The position numbers and the translations under genes are program-made. Below, in pieces: positions 1-9,784 of a DNA stretch of 64,000 nucleotides. The stretch lies in assembly GCA_051531975.1 (NCBI GenBank), contig JAOPTT010000008.1:64001-128000 (forward strand), read 5' to 3'. The stretch comes from Spirochaetaceae bacterium (GTDB lineage: Bacteria > Spirochaetota > Spirochaetia > DSM-2461). The notes under the pieces were generated by a model. That model saw only the letters and a list, made by a program, of their open reading frames with translations. It made no database searches and was not told the origin of the DNA. Position 1 is the first letter of the stretch. Each line of letters starts with the position of its first letter.

Positions 1-1
1 A

Positions 2-160
2 TATTATAGTGAAGTTCCAAATGATAAAGTTAGTTTAGATGAATTAATTTCTAGAGCTGATGAATCACTATATATAGCAAAAAAGAATGGTCGAAATAGA
101 ATTGAATATTATTGTGATCATAAAAAATGTTCTGATTGTACTGGTTGTTCTAAATATTAA
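2..160 (+). CDS. 3' end of a GGDEF diguanylate cyclase with a Cys-rich tail (partial, runs off the window start)
   Basis: Manual translation YYSEVPNDKVSLDELISRADESLYIAKKNGRNRIEYYCDHKKCSDCTGCSKY*. It matches the GGDEF C-terminal signature AD-x-ALY-x-AK-x-x-GRN. Confidence 0.85.
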   Translation, partial: YYSEVPNDKVSLDELISRADESLYIAKKNGRNRIEYYCDHKKCSDCTGCSKY

Positions 161-255
161 TACGTCAATCTACAATGATTCAGTTATTGTTATTTAAATT
201 TTTTGATAGAGTATTAATCATTTTTCATGATATGATAAGTATAGGAGATTTAATA

Positions 256-354
256 ATGGGTGAAAAAGATAAAGGCAAAAAAGATGTTAAAACTAAACCA
301 ACTTTAACTGCTAAAGAGAAAAAAGCAAAAAAATTAGAGAAGAAGAATAAATAA
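256..354 (+). CDS. 32-aa lysine-rich small protein (not in ORF track)
   Basis: AGGAG at 243-247, ATG at 256, MGEKDKGKKDVKTKPTLTAKEKKAKKLEKKNK*, followed by a stem-loop. Confidence 0.75.
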   Translation: MGEKDKGKKDVKTKPTLTAKEKKAKKLEKKNK

Positions 355-368
355 AAAACTTCTAGTTT

Positions 369-397
369 TACTCTCTGCACAATAGATGCAGAGAGTA
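369..397 (+). terminator. Stem-loop downstream of the small Lys-rich ORF
   Basis: TACTCTCTGCA-N7-TGCAGAGAGTA, a perfect 11-bp inverted repeat. The U-tract is poor. Confidence 0.55.
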
Positions 398-486
398 TCC
401 TCCTCACAATTTAATATGATATCCAGAACAATTCAATAAATTAGAATAAATTATATTTATTAGTATATTGAAAAATCAAACATAGC

Positions 487-505
487 GTTATTGATAATAA
501 TTATT
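487..505. promoter_or_regulatory. Possible Fur/PerR-type box
   Basis: GTTATTGATAATAATTATT matches the classical GATAATGATAATCATTATC at 15/19 positions. The AT-rich background weakens this. Confidence 0.3.
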
Positions 506-523
506 TATACTGAAGTGTAGGAT

Positions 524-1087
524 ATGAAAATGAATAGATATAAAAAGACTTGTAGTTTATCTTTGGATATAGAAATTAGGTTAATGCGGCTAATTCTGTG
601 TATCATGTTATTATTTCACATTGCAATATCTCCACTATTTTCAAACAACAATTCTGAGATCTCAGAAATTGATAAAAAAATAGATACTCTATATAGTTAT
701 ACAGTTAATCTAATTTATCCTGAAGAGTTAAATGAAATGTTAGACTCAGATATCTTTATTCTTGATACAAGATCAGAGAAAGAATTTACCCTTAGTCATA
801 TAAAAGATGCAATTTTTATAGATTATAAATCATTCTCCTTAGATAAGTTACCAAAGATTAACAAAAATTCAAAAATTATTATTTATTGCACAATTGGTTA
901 TAGAAGTGAAAAAATTGGAGAGGCTTTACTTGATGACGGTTACATCGATGTATCTAATTTATATGGAGGTTTAATAAACTGGGTTAACCTTAAATTCGAT
1001 GTATATAATAAAAATGGAATTGTAAAAAAGATACATCTATACTCAATTCTTTGGAGAAAGTATCTTTTAAATAAGGATTACAAATGA
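524..1087 (+). CDS. Exported rhodanese-like domain protein
   Basis: ILDTRSEKEF..SHI and active loop YCTIGYRS, NLYGG; N-terminal hydrophobic segment. The true start may be downstream. Confidence 0.85.
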   Translation: MKMNRYKKTCSLSLDIEIRLMRLILCIMLLFHIAISPLFSNNNSEISEIDKKIDTLYSYTVNLIYPEELNEMLDSDIFILDTRSEKEFTLSHIKDAIFIDYKSFSLDKLPKINKNSKIIIYCTIGYRSEKIGEALLDDGYIDVSNLYGGLINWVNLKFDVYNKNGIVKKIHLYSILWRKYLLNKDYK

Positions 1088-1869
1088 AAAAGTTATTATT
1101 CATATGTTTTTTAATATCAGTTATTTCAAATTTATATGCCGCTCCCACACCAGAAGTTTGGGAGAAATGGAATGAATATAATTTAAACAGTACGCTGGTG
1201 ATAAACCACGAATTATGGACAACGTTTTTAAAAAGAAATCTAGTTAGTAAAAATGGAATGAATCTAGTTAAATATTCAGAAGTAAACAGAGAAAGTTATA
1301 ATAACTTAAGCAGTTATATAGAATATTTAACTAGTCAAAAAATTACTAATCTGAATAGAGAAGAGCAGAAATCAGTCTGGATTAATTTATACAACGCTTT
1401 AACTATTAAAGTGGTTCTTGATCACTATCCTGTTAAATCAATTAAAAATATAAATATTTCAGGCCTATTTAAAATTGGACCCTGGGATAAAAAACTTGTA
1501 AGTATTGAATCAGAAGAAATATCCTTAAATGATATAGAACATAAAATATTGCGACCTATTTGGAATGACCATAGAATTCACTACTCTTTAAACTGTGCCA
1601 GCATGAGCTGCCCAGAACTACAGAAAGAGGCATTTACACCTAATAATATTGAAGGTTTGTTAAATATAGCTGAAGGAACATATTTAAAAAGTTCTTATGG
1701 CCATAAATTTTTAAATAATACATTAATTTTATCCTCAATTTATAACTGGTTTTATATTGATTTTGGTAAAGATGAAGAAGAAGTAATAAATTACATAGAA
1801 AGTATAATAAATATTCGTGATTATAAAAAAATCAAATATAGTTACGATTGGTCACTAAATGCTTATTAG
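1084..1869 (+). CDS. DUF547 family exported protein
   Basis: WINLYNALTI, SLNDIEHKILR, DHRIHYSLNCASMSCP and YDWSLN motifs; signal peptide; ATGA-type overlap region with the upstream gene. Confidence 0.9.
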   Translation: MKKLLFICFLISVISNLYAAPTPEVWEKWNEYNLNSTLVINHELWTTFLKRNLVSKNGMNLVKYSEVNRESYNNLSSYIEYLTSQKITNLNREEQKSVWINLYNALTIKVVLDHYPVKSIKNINISGLFKIGPWDKKLVSIESEEISLNDIEHKILRPIWNDHRIHYSLNCASMSCPELQKEAFTPNNIEGLLNIAEGTYLKSSYGHKFLNNTLILSSIYNWFYIDFGKDEEEVINYIESIINIRDYKKIKYSYDWSLNAY

Positions 1870-2106
1870 TTTTTGTATAAATTAGTTACTAATCAAGAAA
1901 ACTATATTGTCCATAAGAATTCCTTTTGATAGGCATACTTAATAAATTGAGAACAGTCTAAGAAAAAATGCTAATATTTTTTTAATTATGTCCTAAAACT
2001 AATTAAAGTTAGATTCGAAAAGTTATCGTGTTAATATTTTATCAGGTCAATAAATTTGATCTAAATTGAATAAAAATATTTTAGAATAAAAAGATATAAA
2101 TAATTT

Positions 2107-2133
2107 CCAACTTTTTATTATTATATGTGTCTA
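2107..2133 (+). promoter_or_regulatory. ECF-sigma-type promoter, probably autoregulatory
   Basis: CCAAC (AAC 2109-2111), 17-nt spacer, GTCTA (2129-2133), just upstream of the GAGG RBS of the ECF gene. Confidence 0.6.
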
Positions 2134-2151
2134 TTAGTGTAGAGAGGATTT

Positions 2152-3315
2152 ATGGATAAAAAGATTTTAATAGATGCAATACATGGCAATAGTAAATCAC
2201 TAGAAAAAATTATATCCCAAAACCAAACACGTATTTATGCTTTTGTTAAAAGTAAAGTTAATAATTCTATGGATGTAGATGAAATAGTGCAAGAAACTTT
2301 TATAAATTGCTTAATAAATATTGGGAAACTTCAAAAAATTGAAACCTTTGATTCTTGGTTATTTAAACTTTGCCATAACAAAATTAAAAACTATTATAGG
2401 GATAAAAGAGAAGATGTTGAGTTTAATGAAAATGTAAATATAACTAATGAAATTAAAAATGAGTGGAATAATTATACAGACTTATTAAAAGTTTCAATTT
2501 CCACTTTATCTAGAAATCAAAGAGATGTTTTGCAACTATATTACTTTTCAGGACATAGTTATCTAGAAATATCTAAAATTTGCAATATAAGTTTAATAAA
2601 AGTTAAAAGCAGACTCTATGAAGCAAAACAGATCCTAAAATCTAAAATACCTCATCTTTATCACGGAGTTGAGCTAACAAAAAGCTTAATGAATACAGAA
2701 AAGGAGTTAATTATGAAAGAGTTAGAATTAATAAAGATAGCATCAAGTGTAATAAGATCACTTTCTTTAAAAGATCAGATGGAACTATGTTTAAATATTT
2801 CCAATAGTGAAAAAATCTCAGGGAAACTATTAGAAAATATAAGTGAAATTGAATTTGGTAAAGATTTTTTAAAAGGATATAATTCAAGACTGACTGTACG
2901 CGATCTATCTAAAATTATAACTTACGATAAAGTATTGGATAAGTGGTTAATAAATAATCTTGAAAAAATAGAACCACAAATTACAGAAGAATTCAAAAAA
3001 AATATATTTGTATTTGAGGATATAGTATTATTGCCTCCAAGTTCTGTTGAGTTAGTACTAAAAAACATAAAATATGAGACTATAATTACCGCTATATCAT
3101 CTACCGAAAAAGTCGTAAAACAATATATACTTAGTTTCTTTGATAATGAAGAAAAAGAGCAAATACTTAATTTATTTTTAGATATTAGTAGTCTAGATAC
3201 AGATATAAATAGAGCTCAATTTAGTATCGTTGAAAGGATACGGGAACTACATGACGATAGAATAATCTCATTCTCATTTGATGTTAAAGAAAACTTACGA
3301 AAACAAGGTTTATAA
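2152..3315 (+). CDS. ECF sigma-70 factor fused to a FliG middle/C-terminal-like domain
   Basis: Sigma region 2 (DVDEIVQETF..FDSWLFKLCHN) and region 4 (LSRNQRDVLQL..SYLEIS..VKSRLYEAK). The C-terminal half has EEFKKNIFVFEDIVLL and DINRAQFSIVERIREL, resembling FliG_C. Confidence 0.85.
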   Translation: MDKKILIDAIHGNSKSLEKIISQNQTRIYAFVKSKVNNSMDVDEIVQETFINCLINIGKLQKIETFDSWLFKLCHNKIKNYYRDKREDVEFNENVNITNEIKNEWNNYTDLLKVSISTLSRNQRDVLQLYYFSGHSYLEISKICNISLIKVKSRLYEAKQILKSKIPHLYHGVELTKSLMNTEKELIMKELELIKIASSVIRSLSLKDQMELCLNISNSEKISGKLLENISEIEFGKDFLKGYNSRLTVRDLSKIITYDKVLDKWLINNLEKIEPQITEEFKKNIFVFEDIVLLPPSSVELVLKNIKYETIITAISSTEKVVKQYILSFFDNEEKEQILNLFLDISSLDTDINRAQFSIVERIRELHDDRIISFSFDVKENLRKQGL

Positions 3316-3499
3316 CAGAAGTTTGTTATTAAAAATCAGTCAGATCAATCGACATTTTCTAAGTATCCTGATTATTAGCAGCATAAACACTAATTTTTAA
3401 AAGTCAGATAGTAGATCTATTTTTTATATGGTAATAAATAGTTAAATATTTGATTTACATAAGTTAATGACATAAAATTTATTAAATAACAGATTAACT

Positions 3500-4753
3500 A
3501 TGAGGATGCAAATAATTATGAATAAGAGCAATATGAAAAAAATCATTGATGAATTATTACTATATTCTGGTCAATTTGGGTTATTTTATATCATTATGCA
3601 AATTATAAAATCAAAATCAATTTTTATAAATGATATTGGACATTTAGGATTATTGTTATCATTGATTTTACAAGTTTTTTTATTGGCTTACTTTGGTCAC
3701 AAAGTTAAATATCGTCTATTATTTTCTTTTATAGTTCCAGTTATTTATAGCTTATTAGAAGTGAGAGAGGGAATTGATTATTTACTAAATACTGCACATA
3801 TTGGATTCTGGATATATGCTGTAATTTCTGCAAGTTTAATGTCAATAAAAATTCATAGTAATACAATTTTTAATAAATCAATTGAAGTCATTTTTGTAGT
3901 TCTCAACGTATTTATATTTTTGTTTATCTACTTTTACTTTGATACCTGGAAAGAAGTAATTACACCTGAAAAATTAATAATAACAGAAATTTTTAAATAC
4001 TTAGATACATTTTTACAAGACCCAACCCACTGGTTTATCATTTTTGGTGGAACATTACTCGCTTTTACTATTGCTTTAGGTCGATATGAAATTGAAAAAC
4101 TTAAAGAAAGAATTACTTCCCTATTTGGACAATATGTAGATAAAAATATAAGGGATACAATTATTAATAAAGGTGAATATATCGCAAAAAAAGACAAGTT
4201 ATGTATCATGTTCGCTGATATCAAAGATTTTACAAAGTTATGTGAAGAAAATGATGCTGAAAGTATAAGTAAAATGTTAAATATATACTTTGATTACTGG
4301 AATAGTATAGTTAAGAGACATAATGGAACTATTGATAAATATATAGGAGATGCTATCATGGTTATTTTTGGACTTCAGAGTGTAAAGGATCCATGTAATT
4401 CTGCAGCAGAATGTTCATTAGAAATAATTAAAAACAAGATGATCCTTGAGGATGAATTAAATAGAAAATCATTACCACTGCCTACAGACTTTGGTATTGG
4501 TTGCCATTTTGGAGAATTAATAATTGGAGATTTAGGAAGTAGTGATAGAAAGAATTTTACAGTTATTGGAGACACTGTAAATATTGCATCTAGACTTGAG
4601 TCTATTACAAGAAATGTACATAGCGATTTGATACTATCAAATACTATGTACACCCACTTAAAAGATTCTCTAAAATCTAAATTTTATAATCTTGGAGAAT
4701 TCGAACTTAAAGGTAAGAGTTCTCTAGTAAAAGTTTGGGGTAATAAAGTCTAA
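3500..4753 (+). CDS. Membrane-bound class III adenylate/guanylate cyclase
   Basis: About 6 hydrophobic helices, then MFADIKDFT, DKYIGDA and TVIGDTVNIASRLES. Confidence 0.9.
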   Translation: MRMQIIMNKSNMKKIIDELLLYSGQFGLFYIIMQIIKSKSIFINDIGHLGLLLSLILQVFLLAYFGHKVKYRLLFSFIVPVIYSLLEVREGIDYLLNTAHIGFWIYAVISASLMSIKIHSNTIFNKSIEVIFVVLNVFIFLFIYFYFDTWKEVITPEKLIITEIFKYLDTFLQDPTHWFIIFGGTLLAFTIALGRYEIEKLKERITSLFGQYVDKNIRDTIINKGEYIAKKDKLCIMFADIKDFTKLCEENDAESISKMLNIYFDYWNSIVKRHNGTIDKYIGDAIMVIFGLQSVKDPCNSAAECSLEIIKNKMILEDELNRKSLPLPTDFGIGCHFGELIIGDLGSSDRKNFTVIGDTVNIASRLESITRNVHSDLILSNTMYTHLKDSLKSKFYNLGEFELKGKSSLVKVWGNKV

Positions 4754-4761
4754 TAATATTA

Positions 4762-5634
4762 CTAAATAACTTTAAAATGATTATTCACTTTAAATCCTAT
4801 AATAATACCCCATAATAGATTTGCATACATGATCTCAGGAAGATGAGCCATTCTAACAAATCCAGGCATTAGAAAGTTTGGAACAAGAAGGCTTGATGAC
4901 ATTAAACACCCAAAAACAATCCCTGTAATTAAACTTTTTTCCCAAACGGACCCCTTCTGATTCTTCTGAAGTGCTATTGCAATAAGTATCCAAATAGAAG
5001 CTCTAGGTATCTGCATAATATATCCAATTGGAACTAGTGACATATCCATTGCAGAACTTTCTCCTGAGAAATAGAAGTCTTTAACACCTTCAACATTCAT
5101 AGGAATTAAAAATCCAGCGATAAAGTAGATAACAAACCAGATAATAATCCATGAAACCCAATGTAGAATAAGCTTTTTACTCCATAAAAATTCTGAAATT
5201 TTATCCTCACTTGGTATTTTAGAACCAAAGAGATAAGCGATTATATAACCAAGAATAAAAGACATAATAAGTCCATTTAATAAGTTAACCATCTGTAGCG
5301 GTACAGGATAAATATACCTCATGAAAATTAAGCTTTCCACTGTATTAAGAACATGATTAATAGCAAAATAAATTAGAGATAACATCAGTCCTAGACTTTT
5401 TCTTTTCAGTTTAGACCGATGTGCTATTAACGCTATAACTAAAATTTGTATTACTGCAACAGTAAATAGACCAGTAATTGTTTCAGTTTGTCCTGGCATT
5501 TTTATGTTACTCAGATCAATACCAAATAGTGGGGTAATTAATGCTCCAGTTAACATGATTGTTACAATATATGCTAAAGTAGCAATAAGACATTTAGTAA
5601 ATAATAATATAGATTTTTTCATATCATCCTCCAC
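4762..5634 (-). CDS. Multi-pass membrane protein of unknown function
   Basis: About 8 hydrophobic segments; lies directly downstream of the membrane LuxR gene. Confidence 0.75.
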   Translation of the reverse strand: MEDDMKKSILLFTKCLIATLAYIVTIMLTGALITPLFGIDLSNIKMPGQTETITGLFTVAVIQILVIALIAHRSKLKRKSLGLMLSLIYFAINHVLNTVESLIFMRYIYPVPLQMVNLLNGLIMSFILGYIIAYLFGSKIPSEDKISEFLWSKKLILHWVSWIIIWFVIYFIAGFLIPMNVEGVKDFYFSGESSAMDMSLVPIGYIMQIPRASIWILIAIALQKNQKGSVWEKSLITGIVFGCLMSSSLLVPNFLMPGFVRMAHLPEIMYANLLWGIIIGFKVNNHFKVI

Positions 5635-5681
5635 CTATTAAACTACAACCAGTATCAGTGAAAAGATATGGGAAATTATAC

Positions 5682-6554
5682 CTAGTTTAATAAATTAACC
5701 AGATCAACACGGCTATTTACCTCTGTTTTTTTATAGATGTTATATATATGATTTTTTACAGTACTAGTGGAAATTTTAAGGTCAAAAGCTATCTCTTTAT
5801 TACTGTGACCCCTAAGAATCGCTGTACTTATCTCTACTTCCCTAGTTGTAAGATTCCACTTTGAAATATATTCATCTAATATAATTGTGTTATTTTGAGG
5901 TCTCTTTATTTTAGCTTTTATTTGGGACATATTCAGTAAATTCCAGCAAATAAATATAATTGGAATATTAACTGTATAATCTCCAAGAAATCCAAAATAA
6001 TATTTTAAAGACATTTCTAATGCTATTATAGCCAGTGTAAAAAGTAGAAAGAAATACCAGAGTCTATTTTCATTACTGCTTTTATTCTCTTCTGATTTAG
6101 AATTCCTATGAGCAAACCAGATAGATATTAAAATAAAAGATGGAACAGCAATAATAATAGGGTAAAAAGAAAATGTAGTTTGCCACAATATTAGTTGCAA
6201 CATTGCTATAACAACAAATAATAGGGGTATAACAGACCATAAAATCTTAGTACTTTTAGTAATACCTTTTTTATCTACTATAAAACTAAGTCGTGATATT
6301 GACCTTGCTAATATACCTTGCCCTAAAATAATAACTGCAATAAAAACTGAAGAAACAAAGGTAGACTTAATAACATTAACCTTTAAATATAATACAATTA
6401 ATGCTGATAACATTAAAAAAGTATAAGAGAGATGAACTCCAATGTAACCCTTCATAAAATCAGAATTATTACCATATTTCATAATAAGATAGATAGCTGA
6501 CACTATGCCACTAATTCCAGATAAAAGATAAAGTAATAATATAATATGAGTCAT
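5682..6554 (-). CDS. Membrane-embedded LuxR-family transcriptional regulator
   Basis: About 7 TM helices, then LTTREVEI..GHSNKEIA..TVKNHIYNIYKK (GerE/LuxR HTH). Start moved to ATG 6554 to avoid overlap with the divergent gene. Confidence 0.85.
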   Translation of the reverse strand: MTHIILLLYLLSGISGIVSAIYLIMKYGNNSDFMKGYIGVHLSYTFLMLSALIVLYLKVNVIKSTFVSSVFIAVIILGQGILARSISRLSFIVDKKGITKSTKILWSVIPLLFVVIAMLQLILWQTTFSFYPIIIAVPSFILISIWFAHRNSKSEENKSSNENRLWYFFLLFTLAIIALEMSLKYYFGFLGDYTVNIPIIFICWNLLNMSQIKAKIKRPQNNTIILDEYISKWNLTTREVEISTAILRGHSNKEIAFDLKISTSTVKNHIYNIYKKTEVNSRVDLVNLLN

Positions 6555-6615
6555 GTTTTGATTATAGCATTGGAATATAATTAGAACTATACTAATTGTA
6601 TTGGGGTTAAAAAAT

Positions 6616-7152
6616 ATGGTTAAAATCGAAATCAATTCAACCACACCTATTAATAATTTAAAAGATATAGACTCAGTTGAACACTCAGTAATAAATGCTG
6701 AAGGTATTACACTTATAACCTTTTTCAGATTTTCTACATGCCCTTTTTGTAATCTACGGCTACGTGCATTAAATAGCTTTATAGAACCCTATGGTTCAAA
6801 GATTAAAGTAATCGCTGTCTTTGGCTCTCCTGAAGCTGAAGTAAGGAAAGCTAAAGAACTTCACCATCCATCATTTCCGCTAGTAAGTAATGCTGATCGA
6901 TCACTATATAAAATATTTTCTGTAACTAAGTCATGGCTTGGTGTTATTAAAGGTATGATATTTAGATTTCCATCATTAATTAAAGGAATGGTACTACAGG
7001 GCAAAATCCCTTTAAATTTTGATGGTATGTTAAATACTATGCCGGCTAGTTTCATAATAGATAAAAACGGTATTATAATTGAAGTTTACTATGGAAAAGA
7101 TGAAGGTGATCATATTAGCTTTAAAAGGATTACAGAAATAATAAACAAATAA
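6616..7152 (+). CDS. Peroxiredoxin-like (AhpC/TSA, thioredoxin-fold) protein
   Basis: FFRFSTCPFCNLR (CxxC) and MPASFIIDKNG; ATG at 6616. Confidence 0.85.
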   Translation: MVKIEINSTTPINNLKDIDSVEHSVINAEGITLITFFRFSTCPFCNLRLRALNSFIEPYGSKIKVIAVFGSPEAEVRKAKELHHPSFPLVSNADRSLYKIFSVTKSWLGVIKGMIFRFPSLIKGMVLQGKIPLNFDGMLNTMPASFIIDKNGIIIEVYYGKDEGDHISFKRITEIINK

Positions 7153-7166
7153 CTAGAATATCCAAA

Positions 7167-8339
7167 CTAAAGCCCGTTTTGCTTCTTCTTATTTTTGTTT
7201 TTATACATATCAATATCAGCAATTTTAATTAAATCCTCGGCGTTTAAGATATTATGATCTTTAAGTTGTGCATAACCAAAACTAATTGAATGTTTTATTT
7301 GTCCATTATTTATAGAGGTAACATTTTCTGAGATTCTTTCCAGTATTAACTTTGCTACAGAAATATCGCCATTGATGATTAGTACAAATTCATCACCACC
7401 ATATCTAAAAGCTGCTTCACTATGTCGTAATCCACTTTTAATTGCTTGTGCTATTGATTTAATATACTCATCACCAATTTTGTGTCCAAGTTTATCATTG
7501 ATGTGTTTTAGTCCATCTGCATCAATAAAAGATATAGTTAGTGGATCATTTGTTCTTTTAGATTTTTCGAACTCTTTAGACAATAACAGTATCCCAACTC
7601 TTTTATTGTAAAGGCCTGTCATCTCATCATATGAAGCTAACATATCCAAATAATGCTCATTATCTTTTATTTCCTGAAATGTTTTTTTCATCTCTTTCTC
7701 AACGGGAACAAAAATGAAAAGTGCTTCAAATAAAAGCAGGCAAAATGTTATTAAAAGAAGAATTATTTCAAGTTGTTTAATTTTTTTGAGTTTGTTTGTA
7801 GCTTCAAAATCATATTGAAATACTATGTCATTCATCCCTTGTAAGAAGATCGATTCCTGTTCTAAAATATTAGTTAAGAATTCATTAATATTTGTATCGT
7901 TATTATGATAGGATTCAATAATTAAATTAGTATTAATTATTATTATATTATATGGGTCTTTGATTTCCGAAAACATTTGAATAACTATTGGACTATTATT
8001 AGCTTCTATGCCTAATAGAACTGATCCTTCTTTTAAAGCTTTGTCCGAGGTTCTCCACAATTCTAATGTATTAGTAAGTTCAATAATATATTTTGCCTTG
8101 ATAAAGTTATCAGAATTGTTAGATAATGCTAATGCTGACTTCGTAATTTTTTGGCTTAACATTCTTTGCCTACCTGCTATATTTATAACTCTAGCAGAAT
8201 CTGTATTTTCATCCAGAGCGACCTGGATTAAAACTTGGCTTATTATAATTAATAATGCAATTAGACCTAAAGCTGTGGCATATCTTTTTCTTAATAGAGA
8301 TGGAGTAAACTTATAATTACTATTAATTATTTTCATCAA
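7167..8339 (-). CDS. Diguanylate cyclase with a NarX/PilJ-type periplasmic sensor
   Basis: TM, INIAGRQRMLSQK (NarX P-box-like), TM, DADGLKHINDKLGH, RYGGDEF. Confidence 0.9.
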   Translation of the reverse strand: MMKIINSNYKFTPSLLRKRYATALGLIALLIIISQVLIQVALDENTDSARVINIAGRQRMLSQKITKSALALSNNSDNFIKAKYIIELTNTLELWRTSDKALKEGSVLLGIEANNSPIVIQMFSEIKDPYNIIIINTNLIIESYHNNDTNINEFLTNILEQESIFLQGMNDIVFQYDFEATNKLKKIKQLEIILLLITFCLLLFEALFIFVPVEKEMKKTFQEIKDNEHYLDMLASYDEMTGLYNKRVGILLLSKEFEKSKRTNDPLTISFIDADGLKHINDKLGHKIGDEYIKSIAQAIKSGLRHSEAAFRYGGDEFVLIINGDISVAKLILERISENVTSINNGQIKHSISFGYAQLKDHNILNAEDLIKIADIDMYKNKNKKKQNGL

Positions 8340-8386
8340 ACAAAATCCTTATAAACACATTTAAATACTATATAAACAACATTGTA

Positions 8387-9784
8387 TTAAAACAATTTTA
8401 TTAGATATACATTCAGTTTGTTATCTTTACCTTTAACACTAATCTCTATTGGTTCATTAAAAGATATTTTATCTTTTAATTCATCATATATATTATCTTT
8501 TACTAAAACTTCACCTTTGCCAGCTGCACTGCAAATTCTAGCTGCGGTATTAACATTGTCACCAATAACTGTAAAATCAGCTCTATCTTGGGAACCTAAC
8601 ATTCCTAAAATAACATCTCCCCGATTTATACCTATACCAACCATTAAATTCCCATACTCTTTTTTAGATTTAAGTTTTAATTCTTTTTGGATTTTAATTG
8701 CAGCATTACAAGCTCTTTCTTCCTGATTTTCACCGGTGAATATTGCCATAATTTCATCTCCGACATATTTATCAATATCACCACCTTCACTTTTTATTAT
8801 TTGAGTCTGAAAATTTAATATTTTGTTTAAATCCCTAACAACTTCCCTTGGAGTATGTTTTTCAGAATATGAAGTAAAACCTCTTATATCACTAAAAAAG
8901 AGGGTTAAATTTACCTGTTCACCATCATCATTAGAACCAGATAGGGATTTAATTGTAGATTCCGAAACATATTTCGAAAGTTCAAATCTCTCCATAAGTC
9001 CCTCAGACATTTTATTAACAGTATTCCCTAAATCTCCAATTTCATCATTACTATTTATTTTTACTCTATTTGAAAAAACTCCTTTTGTTACAGAGTTACA
9101 AACTTCACCAATTCTTTTTATAGGATTTAATACACTTTTATGAATAAAGGTTGTTAATATTAATAACAGTGCCAAAACTATAATTGGAAATATAATTACC
9201 GATGTTATAATTCCAGTTTTTTTCTCATTTTCTGATTCTGTAATATTATTAGTAATTTCAATTACACCCCTAATAATATGATCTGAGCCGTGGCACTTTG
9301 CGCAACTAGCTAGGTTTCTAAGTGGTCTATATACTTTTACAAATGATTCATTTTCTACTTTAAAATCCATGAAACTTATATGGGTTGGTAGATCATCCCT
9401 CATAACTCCAGAGGTATAAATATCATCACGCTCCTTAAATACTTCTTTTTTGAGATTTTTATTAACCTGCATTATTGTTTTATTATCCGTAAAAGCATAG
9501 GTTCCATCACTTCGGTATAGTTTTATTGTAAAGTATGGGTTTGCTTCCTCTAGATCACTTAATAATTTCACAGCTAAAGGAGCTTGACCTGGTAACATAA
9601 AGTTTTTTATAGATGTATGCAGAATTTCAGACTGTTGCTCTATATTCTTTTTAGTGTCCATATCGATGGTAGTATATAAAGATCTAAAGAGTATAAATAT
9701 AACAATCCCTACGCCGAGGATAAGAGTTACTGAAATAATTGTATTAATTTTTTTTGATATAGGTTTATATTTTGATTTTTTCAA
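8387..9784 (-). CDS. Class III adenylate cyclase with a periplasmic CxxCH sensor and HAMP domain
   Basis: TM, periplasmic region with CAKCH, TM, HAMP (DEIGDLG), then FFSDIRGFT, DKYVGDE and TVIGDNVNTAAR. Confidence 0.9.
   Translation of the reverse strand: MKKSKYKPISKKINTIISVTLILGVGIVIFILFRSLYTTIDMDTKKNIEQQSEILHTSIKNFMLPGQAPLAVKLLSDLEEANPYFTIKLYRSDGTYAFTDNKTIMQVNKNLKKEVFKERDDIYTSGVMRDDLPTHISFMDFKVENESFVKVYRPLRNLASCAKCHGSDHIIRGVIEITNNITESENEKKTGIITSVIIFPIIVLALLLILTTFIHKSVLNPIKRIGEVCNSVTKGVFSNRVKINSNDEIGDLGNTVNKMSEGLMERFELSKYVSESTIKSLSGSNDDGEQVNLTLFFSDIRGFTSYSEKHTPREVVRDLNKILNFQTQIIKSEGGDIDKYVGDEIMAIFTGENQEERACNAAIKIQKELKLKSKKEYGNLMVGIGINRGDVILGMLGSQDRADFTVIGDNVNTAARICSAAGKGEVLVKDNIYDELKDKISFNEPIEISVKGKDNKLNVYLIKLF

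Follow-up and report, generated by a model that had tools for sequence, protein, structure and literature searches.

Why should a sigma factor carry part of a flagellar motor protein? The question is raised by one gene in a 64,000-nt stretch of DNA (the window, by which we mean this whole stretch) from the Spirochaetaceae bacterium assembly GCA_051531975.1 (contig JAOPTT010000008.1, positions 64,001–128,000, forward strand), whose host genome comprises 5.46 Mb in 29 contigs at 31.5% G+C. The uninterrupted open reading frame (ORF) at 2152..3315 (+) encodes a 387-amino-acid protein in which a sigma factor of the extracytoplasmic function (ECF) type is fused to a module derived from the rotor protein FliG. 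The answer that we favor, with a probability of roughly 55%, is that this protein belongs to an undescribed group of one-component ECF sigma factors, and that its C-terminal regulatory extension was recruited from FliG.

Sigma core and FliG-derived module

An earlier reading of this DNA made from the sequence alone (the sequence-only reading) had proposed that the N-terminal part of the protein is a complete ECF sigma factor with regions 2 and 4, and profile searches bear this out. Pfam places sigma region 2 (Sigma70_r2) at residues 21–86 (2212..2409, +; 42.7 bits, E 4.8e-11) and sigma region 4 (Sigma70_r4_2) at residues 116–160 (2497..2631, +; 41.8 bits, E 8.3e-11), and no other sigma region was matched by Pfam in the 387-residue protein. 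The NCBIfam family TIGR02937 (sigma70-ECF) spans residues 16–165 with 82.8 bits against a cut-off of 42.9, and a profile of the fusion family matched solved ECF sigma factors with E values of 1e-32 to 1e-38. Residues 1–170 are a normal sigma-2/sigma-4 core. The NCBIfam equivalog families SigZ, SigY and SigM all scored far under their cut-offs, the highest being SigZ (79.9 bits vs 168.65). As read from the sequence, translation would begin at the ATG at 2152, preceded by the ribosome-binding site GAGAGGA (site and start codon together, 2141..2154, +), which gives a duplex of −6.4 kcal/mol with what we take to be the anti-Shine-Dalgarno (anti-SD) sequence.

Past sigma region 4 the protein continues for about 215 residues, an extension that is present in 43 of 43 aligned family members. 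These 43 proteins with a FliG-type head form alignment A2, while 20 sister proteins with other heads form alignment A3. Pfam matched FliG_C at residues 269–372 (E 8.2e-12; 45.8 bits, cut-off 23.3), and the combination of Sigma70_r2, Sigma70_r4_2 and FliG_C was found in all members of A2 (43/43). The 16 Pfam families listed for these 43 proteins include no MotA family. The fusion is one of three FliG_C matches in the host genome. The other two are P0022, the canonical host FliG (341 amino acids), encoded in a fliF-fliG-fliH-fliI operon between fliF-like and fliH/fliI-like genes, and the paralog P0023. BLASTP aligned residues 186–368 of the fusion with P0022 (E 3e-12), and hhalign placed a 12-member family profile on the same protein with 99.5% probability (E 3.8e-22), residues 195–379 lying on FliG 147–336. 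The Pfam and hhalign results agree with the proposal, made by eye, that residues ~195–375 are FliG-like. In the alignment to P0022, IFVFED of the fusion pairs with MFVFED of host FliG and DINRAQFSIVERIREL pairs with DVEDAQQKIVSIIRKL; ArmC, the MFXF hinge and the other FliG motifs all fall where the sequence-only reading had put them. Additionally, the family profile matched the structure 1lkv by sequence (E 2.1e-31, profile positions 204–385).

The extension can be divided into an adapter and a head. The FliG-like adapter, residues 177–293 (~115 residues; 2680..3030, +; hhalign on host FliG 147–250), is made up of a long helix followed by the C-terminal half of FliG_M, a helix MC that lacks the Gly-Gly linker, ArmC and then the MFVFED hinge. 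The head, residues 294–372 (3031..3267, +; Pfam FliG_C 269–372), is the six-helix C-terminal domain of FliG without its stator-facing charges. The proposal that the module contains an ArmM stands in part: the C-terminal half of FliG_M is present, whereas the rest of FliG_M is absent, leaving half an ArmM. Pfam gave no match to FliG_M alongside that to FliG_C, the number of family members matched at E ≤ 0.01 being 0/43 for FliG_M, as it was for FliG_N and MgtE_N. Information per column in A2 amounts to 2.12 bits for sigma-2, 2.18 for sigma-4, 2.24 for the adapter (177–290) and 1.71 for the head, making the head the least conserved folded part and the adapter as well conserved as the sigma domains. 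ArmC together with MFVFED, at 2.51 bits, is the most conserved stretch of the extension and retains the FliG consensus, with F286, F288 and D290 nearly invariant.

In the scheme of FliG laid out in sections of PMC10372836, the N domain binds FliF, the middle domain binds FliM via EHPQR, and ARM motifs provide FliG-FliG contacts both within and between molecules; flexibility resides in helix MC, with its Gly-Gly linker, and in the MFXF motif, and charges on C-alpha 1–6 face the stator. Judged by its sequence, the module has shed whatever attaches FliG to the motor, namely the N domain that contacts FliF, the EHPQR that contacts FliM, the Gly-Gly linker of the switch and the charges that face the stator. 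Sigma core takes up the N-terminal 170 residues in place of FliG_N, and no counterpart of EHPQ is present, the EHPQ of host FliG being located at residue 132, upstream of the aligned part (which starts at 139–147). At the positions of G202 and G203 of host FliG, glycine occurs in 0/43 and 4/43 members, respectively, and R-L prevails. The five torque charges, which we take to be K264, R281, D288, D289 and R297 in E. coli FliG numbering, correspond to S, E, N, L and L in the fusion. Across A2 the K264 equivalent is retained in 4/43 members and the R281 equivalent is R or K in none (0/43; E in 18/43), while acidic residues occupy the D288 and D289 equivalents in 8/43 and 10/43 and a basic residue the R297 equivalent in 3/43. 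The alignment indicates that loss of the torque charges is a trait of the whole family and peculiar to no single copy. The missing N domain and EHPQ and the lost stator charges, all noticed by eye in the one protein, hold family-wide. For flagellar biology, the fusion may be regarded as a natural experiment on what remains of FliG when contacts for torque, FliF and FliM are dispensable, namely ArmC and the MFXF hinge.

Structure prediction gave the same division. Two AlphaFold2 models were made, one from 12 sequences (predicted local distance difference test, pLDDT, 83.8; predicted template modeling score, pTM, 0.66) and one from 43 sequences (86.1 and 0.70), and Foldseek searches with the model retrieved both ECF sigma factors and FliG_MC structures. 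The predicted sigma-2 superposes on SigW and sigmaE with Z 12–12.6 and a root-mean-square deviation (rmsd) of 1.7–3.2 Å over ~90 residues, and the predicted region 4 on sigmaE region 4 (2h27) with Z 10.8–11.2 and an rmsd of 2.0–2.1 Å. With VIA-align, model residues 192–376 aligned with T. maritima FliG 138–327 (4fhr_B, Z 15.6–15.8; 3ajc, Z 15.1–15.3). The modeled head alone aligned with T. maritima FliG_C 1qc7 (Z 14.9–15.0, rmsd 2.3 Å, 96 residues) and with the stator-bound FliG_C 8ucs_H (rmsd 1.7 Å, 87 residues). In both sequence and fold the module resembles FliG from the second half of FliG_M through helix MC, ArmC and the MFXF hinge to the six-helix C domain. Unlike FliG, it has no N domain, EHPQR, Gly-Gly linker or torque charges, forms one protein with a sigma factor, and is encoded away from flagellar operons in a host that keeps a normal FliG.

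The family, its heads and its promoter

Homologs of the same architecture were found well beyond the host. A word-indexed search of 5.8 billion proteins returned 12 fusion proteins, down to 23% identity, and the best 150 profile matches among 1.84 billion cluster representatives included at least 37 full-length representatives of 366–414 amino acids together with ~18 shorter pieces, which rules out a one-off artifact. The ORF is uninterrupted in independent genomes and metagenomes, down to 18–23% identity and with constant domain order. The ESM Atlas returned ordinary ECF clusters alone, the fusion being represented by none with at least 50 members. By record title, source name or kinship, every carrier genome that was found belongs to the spirochaetes, and carriers range from 30% to 58% G+C. 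Among spirochaetes the family is rare and patchy. Species-representative genomes yielded the fusion in 3/41 close relatives, but in 0/3 genomes of the same genus and 0/21 of the same family. It was present in 8/401 genomes of the class (0/37 other genomes of the host family) and in 2/401 genomes, host included, of an even sample of the phylum; a scan of genome contigs contained at least two fusion loci. On this comparative evidence we take the family to be real and under selection.

A further set of proteins matches the family profile to position ~270–300 and then diverges (profile search, with Pfam run on 22 of them). Among the 20 proteins of A3, the head is STAS or STAS plus SpoIIE/PP2C in seven (P0012, P0046, P0052, P0061, P0063, P0085 and P0087), of the glyoxalase/bleomycin-resistance type in eight (P0064, P0065, P0068, P0069, P0074, P0082, P0083 and P0089) and cNMP_binding in one (P0073), and no Pfam domain was found past the adapter in the other four (P0067, P0071, P0081 and P0088). 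P0078 and P0079 are short, and P0066 is a truncated FliG_C form. Alignment of A2 with A3 by hhalign gave a probability of 100% (E 3e-77) over 294 columns and stops exactly at the FVFE hinge. One genome, G221, holds two copies, L098 with a FliG head (384 amino acids) and L103 with a STAS-PP2C head (685 amino acids), and both have a CCAAC-N17-RTCTA promoter and an internal AAGGAG-ATG. The simplest reading of these sequences would be a constant unit of sigma core and adapter with an exchangeable input head, and the contiguous FliG piece is probably the original form of the extension. This modular plan, in which the head is exchanged behind a sigma core and a FliG-like adapter that stay constant, could explain how such sigma factors gain new inputs.

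The gene is preceded by an ECF-type promoter at 2107..2134 (+), composed of CCAAC (2107–2111), a 17-nt spacer and GTCTAT (2129–2134), ending ~18 nt before the ATG. The motif CCAAC-N17-(G/A)TC(T/G)(A/G/T) lies 40–50 nt before the start in the window, in loci L004/L101, L100, L005, L096, L097 and L098, and in the STAS-PP2C variant L103. It is conserved in nine species, one of them represented by a STAS variant, at 30–58% G+C. Locus L099 (genome G312) instead has CCGGAC-N17-TACTAT upstream of 1480, which may mean either that promoter and sigma specificity changed together or that translation starts at another codon, and the broken copy L102 has no clear promoter site upstream. The motif resembles those of autoregulated ECF (group 4) sigma factors, with an AAC-containing −35 element, a GTC-containing −10 element and spacing in the 16–17 nt class. 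Because the sigma gene has an ECF-type promoter of its own, we infer that the sigma factor activates this promoter in a positive autoregulatory loop.

A position weight matrix (PWM) built from five sites and run over the 5.46-Mb host genome ranked the gene's own promoter first with 22.0 bits, the second site reaching 18.4 bits, and the next 39 sites listed lie mostly or wholly within long ORFs. The sole other intergenic promoter-like site in the host genome with an ORF downstream is on contig C9 at ~525,037 (−). It reads CCAAC-N18-ATCTAT, 123 nt before a 337-amino-acid lipoprotein-like ORF, and is a weak candidate target with one extra spacer base. The regulon may be small.

As the sequence-only reading had stated, no anti-sigma or flagellar gene is adjacent. 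By Pfam, neither was found among the six window neighbors, which encode a rhodanese, a DUF547 protein, a membrane class III cyclase, a membrane protein without a Pfam match, a membrane LuxR-type protein and an AhpC-like protein. Likewise, no anti-sigma Pfam domain was found among 8 neighbors at four other loci, where the genes encode an amino-acid permease, FG-GAP, pentapeptide, FtsX permease, AraC/GyrI, AAA/DUF4143 ATPase and PEGA proteins. No neighbor is conserved between the window and these four loci, although an anti-sigma factor may be encoded elsewhere in the genome.

A probable regulatory extension and the alternatives

We favor a one-component ECF sigma factor that would work as follows. 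The sigma factor would activate its own promoter and so amplify itself. The adapter would be the part coupled to the sigma core, holding it closed or active as the proximal extension does in ECF41 and ECF42, and the head would serve as the exchangeable input domain, a protein-binding FliG_C fold here and a STAS (with or without PP2C), glyoxalase-type or cNMP-binding domain in the sister proteins. The input of the head is probably a protein partner, given its FliG_C fold and its lack of conserved surface charges. Additionally, a second product of 200 amino acids, consisting of adapter and head and starting at Met188, may come from the same mRNA and act in trans, and this short form would add an anti-sigma-like layer. 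That the FliG module is a built-in regulatory domain, as first suggested from the sequence, is the best-supported reading in view of the architecture, the conserved adapter with its exchanged heads, the conserved promoter, the lost motor contacts and the lack of an anti-sigma neighbor; its contact with the sigma core is a part that we infer.

Known ECF sigma factors with extensions provide the closest parallel. In the portions of the literature consulted, ECFs with a C-terminal extension usually have no anti-sigma factor (PMC8999054), the extension takes the place of the anti-sigma factor in ECF41, ECF42 and ECF238, and for ECF42 a sigma-4 contact is predicted for the proximal part of the extension only (PMC8999054, PMC7826278). 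Similar to these regulated ECFs, the fusion has an ECF core followed by a ~200-residue extension, no anti-sigma gene nearby and an own-promoter motif of the AAC...CGTC type. By analogy with ECF42, its extension would be an all-helical repeat whose proximal part is the candidate contact to sigma-4. Unlike the known extension ECFs, its extension is a FliG middle/C module, its heads are swapped behind a constant adapter, and a conserved internal SD-like site lies at the domain boundary.

We found no published description of a sigma-FliG architecture. The word FliG does not occur in the searched portions of the text of the ECF re-classification paper (PMC7826278) or of a 2022 review of non-canonical ECFs (PMC8999054). 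Within the part of one supplement of the re-classification paper that was covered, FliG, PF01706 and MgtE are absent, and STAS, glyoxalase and cNMP are not named as fused extensions. Literature searches returned no relevant paper joining an ECF sigma or its C-terminal extension with FliG, or a FliG-like protein with a sigma factor. The impression that no characterized ECF group has this architecture agrees with the ECF literature searched, the supplement in part. Among sigma factors, ECFs with fused regulatory domains play the part of 'one-component systems'. Few types of extension have been studied, and to these the present family adds one that was recruited from a motor protein.

Several observations weigh against the regulatory reading. 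Neither a regular expression nor the PWM located a convincing intergenic target in the host genome besides the gene's own promoter, and in five other genomes TCCAACN17RTCKRY is no commoner than a reversed control. In both models the sigma-2/sigma-4 pair is compact and closer to anti-sigma-bound ECFs (rmsd 10.4–13.1 Å, 146–160 residues) than to RNA-polymerase-bound ones (24–25 Å), which favors the regulatory reading; at 10–13 Å, however, the models do not contain the classical anti-sigma sandwich. At the junction of sigma-4 and adapter, pLDDT falls to 72 in the 43-sequence model. The orientation of the head on ArmC also differs between the models: the 12-sequence model fits 1lkv (2.4 Å/130 residues) and the 43-sequence model fits the clockwise (CW)-state structure 8wiw_3 (3.4 Å/130 residues). 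Because of this disagreement, we assign neither a CW-like nor a counterclockwise (CCW)-like state. The adapter of A3 matches host FliG 150–256 weakly (hhalign probability 32%, E 4.8e-4), although in unchanged register. Lastly, ArmC keeps many of the residues conserved in real FliG, which would also fit binding to the ArmM of real FliG.

The possible second product rests on an internal site. Just past sigma-4 the family has a near-invariant K/E-E-x-I-M, written in the window with the codons AAG GAG tta att ATG. These codons supply an SD-like AAGGAG (2701–2706), a 6-nt spacer and the in-frame ATG of Met188 (2713–2715; whole site 2701..2715, +; identified from sequence and duplex energy). The predicted duplex at Met188, −8.4 kcal/mol, is the strongest of the nine in-frame start-type codons and exceeds that of the annotated start. 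Within host ORFs, only 0.71% of the 16,511 in-frame ATGs at internal positions reach −8.4 kcal/mol, vs 12.5% of naive ORF starts. The codon of K184 within the site is AAG, which the gene uses for 4 of its 42 lysines vs 38 with AAA. In 10/10 species with DNA available, an SD-like core lies 5–9 nt before an in-frame ATG or GTG at the boundary of sigma core and module: AAGGAG-6-ATG in the window, L096 and L103; AAGGAG-9-ATG in L097 and L098; GAGGAG-6-ATG in L005 and L102; GGGAGG-5-ATG in L099; and GGAGGA-8-GTG in L004/L101 and L100. The core persists despite changes of residue (W-E in L099, with a GGAGG core; E-E elsewhere) or insertion of a residue. Met188 is at least 90% conserved in A2 and in A3, and its site ranks first to third among in-frame starts in five scored loci. 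These features suggest that adapter and head may also be made as a separate 200-amino-acid protein from Met188.

In the fullest form of this idea, one gene has two products, the full-length fusion and a free FliG-like protein of 200 amino acids that acts in trans on the fusion or its partner, either like an anti-sigma factor or as a competitor. We hold this tentatively, as a possibility that is compatible with the one-component reading and adds a layer to it. Tn5 transposase/inhibitor and CheA-L/CheA-S are examples of nested or short-form products from internal starts. Similar to those genes, the fusion combines a strong internal ribosome-binding site with an in-frame start at a domain boundary, from which the Met188 product is predicted. 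The two-product idea also fits the statement, in part of PMC8999054, that some ECF extensions arose by fusion with an anti-sigma gene. However, K/E-E-x-I-M could be a structural motif that starts the long helix, and the protein sequences of variants with a glyoxalase head mostly have R-R or R-K before the methionine. Short database proteins that start at Met188 come from contigs of 876–2,492 nt and are probably fragments, P0058 (208 amino acids) being the sole short form on a long (42-kb) contig. Additionally, the duplex energies depend on our assumed anti-SD sequence, and the host assembly yielded no clear 16S 3' end. The internal ribosome-binding site nevertheless raises the idea of a sigma factor and its regulator read from one frame.

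A second alternative, put forward in the sequence-only reading, is docking of the FliG module on the flagellar switch complex, for instance through ArmC on the ArmM of real FliG or through FliG-like self-association, such that the availability of the sigma factor reports the assembly or state of the rotor. Were the module to bind the C-ring, motor state and transcription would be coupled in a new way. In favor of docking, ArmC with MFVFED is the part of the extension most strongly held to the FliG consensus, FliG ARM motifs mediate contacts within and between molecules (sections of PMC10372836), the host has both a canonical FliG operon and a second FliG paralog, and every carrier found is a spirochaete. 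Set against this are the loss of the N domain, EHPQR and stator charges and the nature of the head, which has no conserved surface, is the least conserved folded part (1.71 bits vs 2.24 for the adapter) and is swapped in sister proteins for small-molecule or partner-switching domains. Furthermore, the fusion never stands beside flagellar genes at the loci examined, and most flagellated relatives do not have it (not found in 393/401 genomes of the class or in 37/37 others of the host family). No copy of the promoter motif was found before a flagellar gene, either in the host genome scan or in a pattern search of five related genomes. Since a swappable, poorly conserved head makes C-ring docking less likely, we consider this explanation unlikely.

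A more specific version has the module, in spirochaetes of several lineages and as full-length protein or as the 200-amino-acid form, inserting into or competing for the ArmM-ArmC chain of the C-ring, with rotor assembly or turnover determining how much of the self-amplifying sigma factor is free. We regard this version as slightly more doubtful again. If true, it would constitute a second checkpoint from flagellum to transcription, unrelated to FlgM/sigma-28. FlgM is an anti-sigma factor that is secreted and acts on a group 3 sigma factor. A C-ring reading would resemble FlgM/sigma-28 in linking a flagellar structure to a sigma factor, and would be unlike it in that the rotor-protein fragment is borne in cis by an ECF sigma and that the promoter searches turned up no link to flagellar promoters.

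The folds of FliG and of the MgtE N domain are related, and the module might be an MgtE-N-like domain that senses Mg2+ (cations) and does not derive from FliG. A weak MgtE_N Pfam match to the FliG1-like host protein P0023 is consistent with this, but the fusion itself has no MgtE_N match at E ≤ 1, 0/43 family members have one at E ≤ 0.01, and the hinge MFVFED, like the alignment register, is specific to FliG, making the idea very improbable. Lastly, an assembly or gene-calling artifact, or a decaying fusion without function, could be argued from the deletions in the ArmM half and head of the L005 copy (7992–9086, 364 amino acids) and from the broken G172 copy (L102 1136–1864; a 243-amino-acid ORF whose N-terminus is scrambled and which stops early), but for the family as a whole we reject it as close to inconceivable, given the intact copies of constant domain order in independent genomes and metagenomes and the conserved promoter.

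Neighboring genes and other FliG-like proteins

No intrinsic terminator was predicted in the interval that separates the sigma gene from the cyclase gene at 3500–4753, which lies downstream in the same orientation. The first part of the window (1–9784) is dense in second-messenger genes. The cyclase at 3500–4753 is a membrane class III adenylate/guanylate cyclase by Pfam, and by motifs recognized by eye there are GGDEF-type ORFs at 2–160 and 7167–8339 and a HAMP/cyclase-like ORF at 8387–9784.

FliG domains also occur in other unusual settings. Among the proteins P0098, P0108 and P0127 of the profile search, two (427 and 456 amino acids) have a tandem double FliG_C and one (996 amino acids) combines FliM, six DUF4116 repeats, FliG_M and FliG_C. 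The relatives G005, G010, G014, G018 and G031 have ORFs of 612–621 amino acids that match the FliG-like half of the profile in their C-terminal part, and none was found in the host. The host FliG paralog P0023 (373 amino acids; FliG_N, FliG_M and FliG_C) is encoded on contig C6 (L002 1477–2595, −), alone beside an alaS-like gene. It is without two of the five torque charges, the R281 equivalent being G and the D288 equivalent A.

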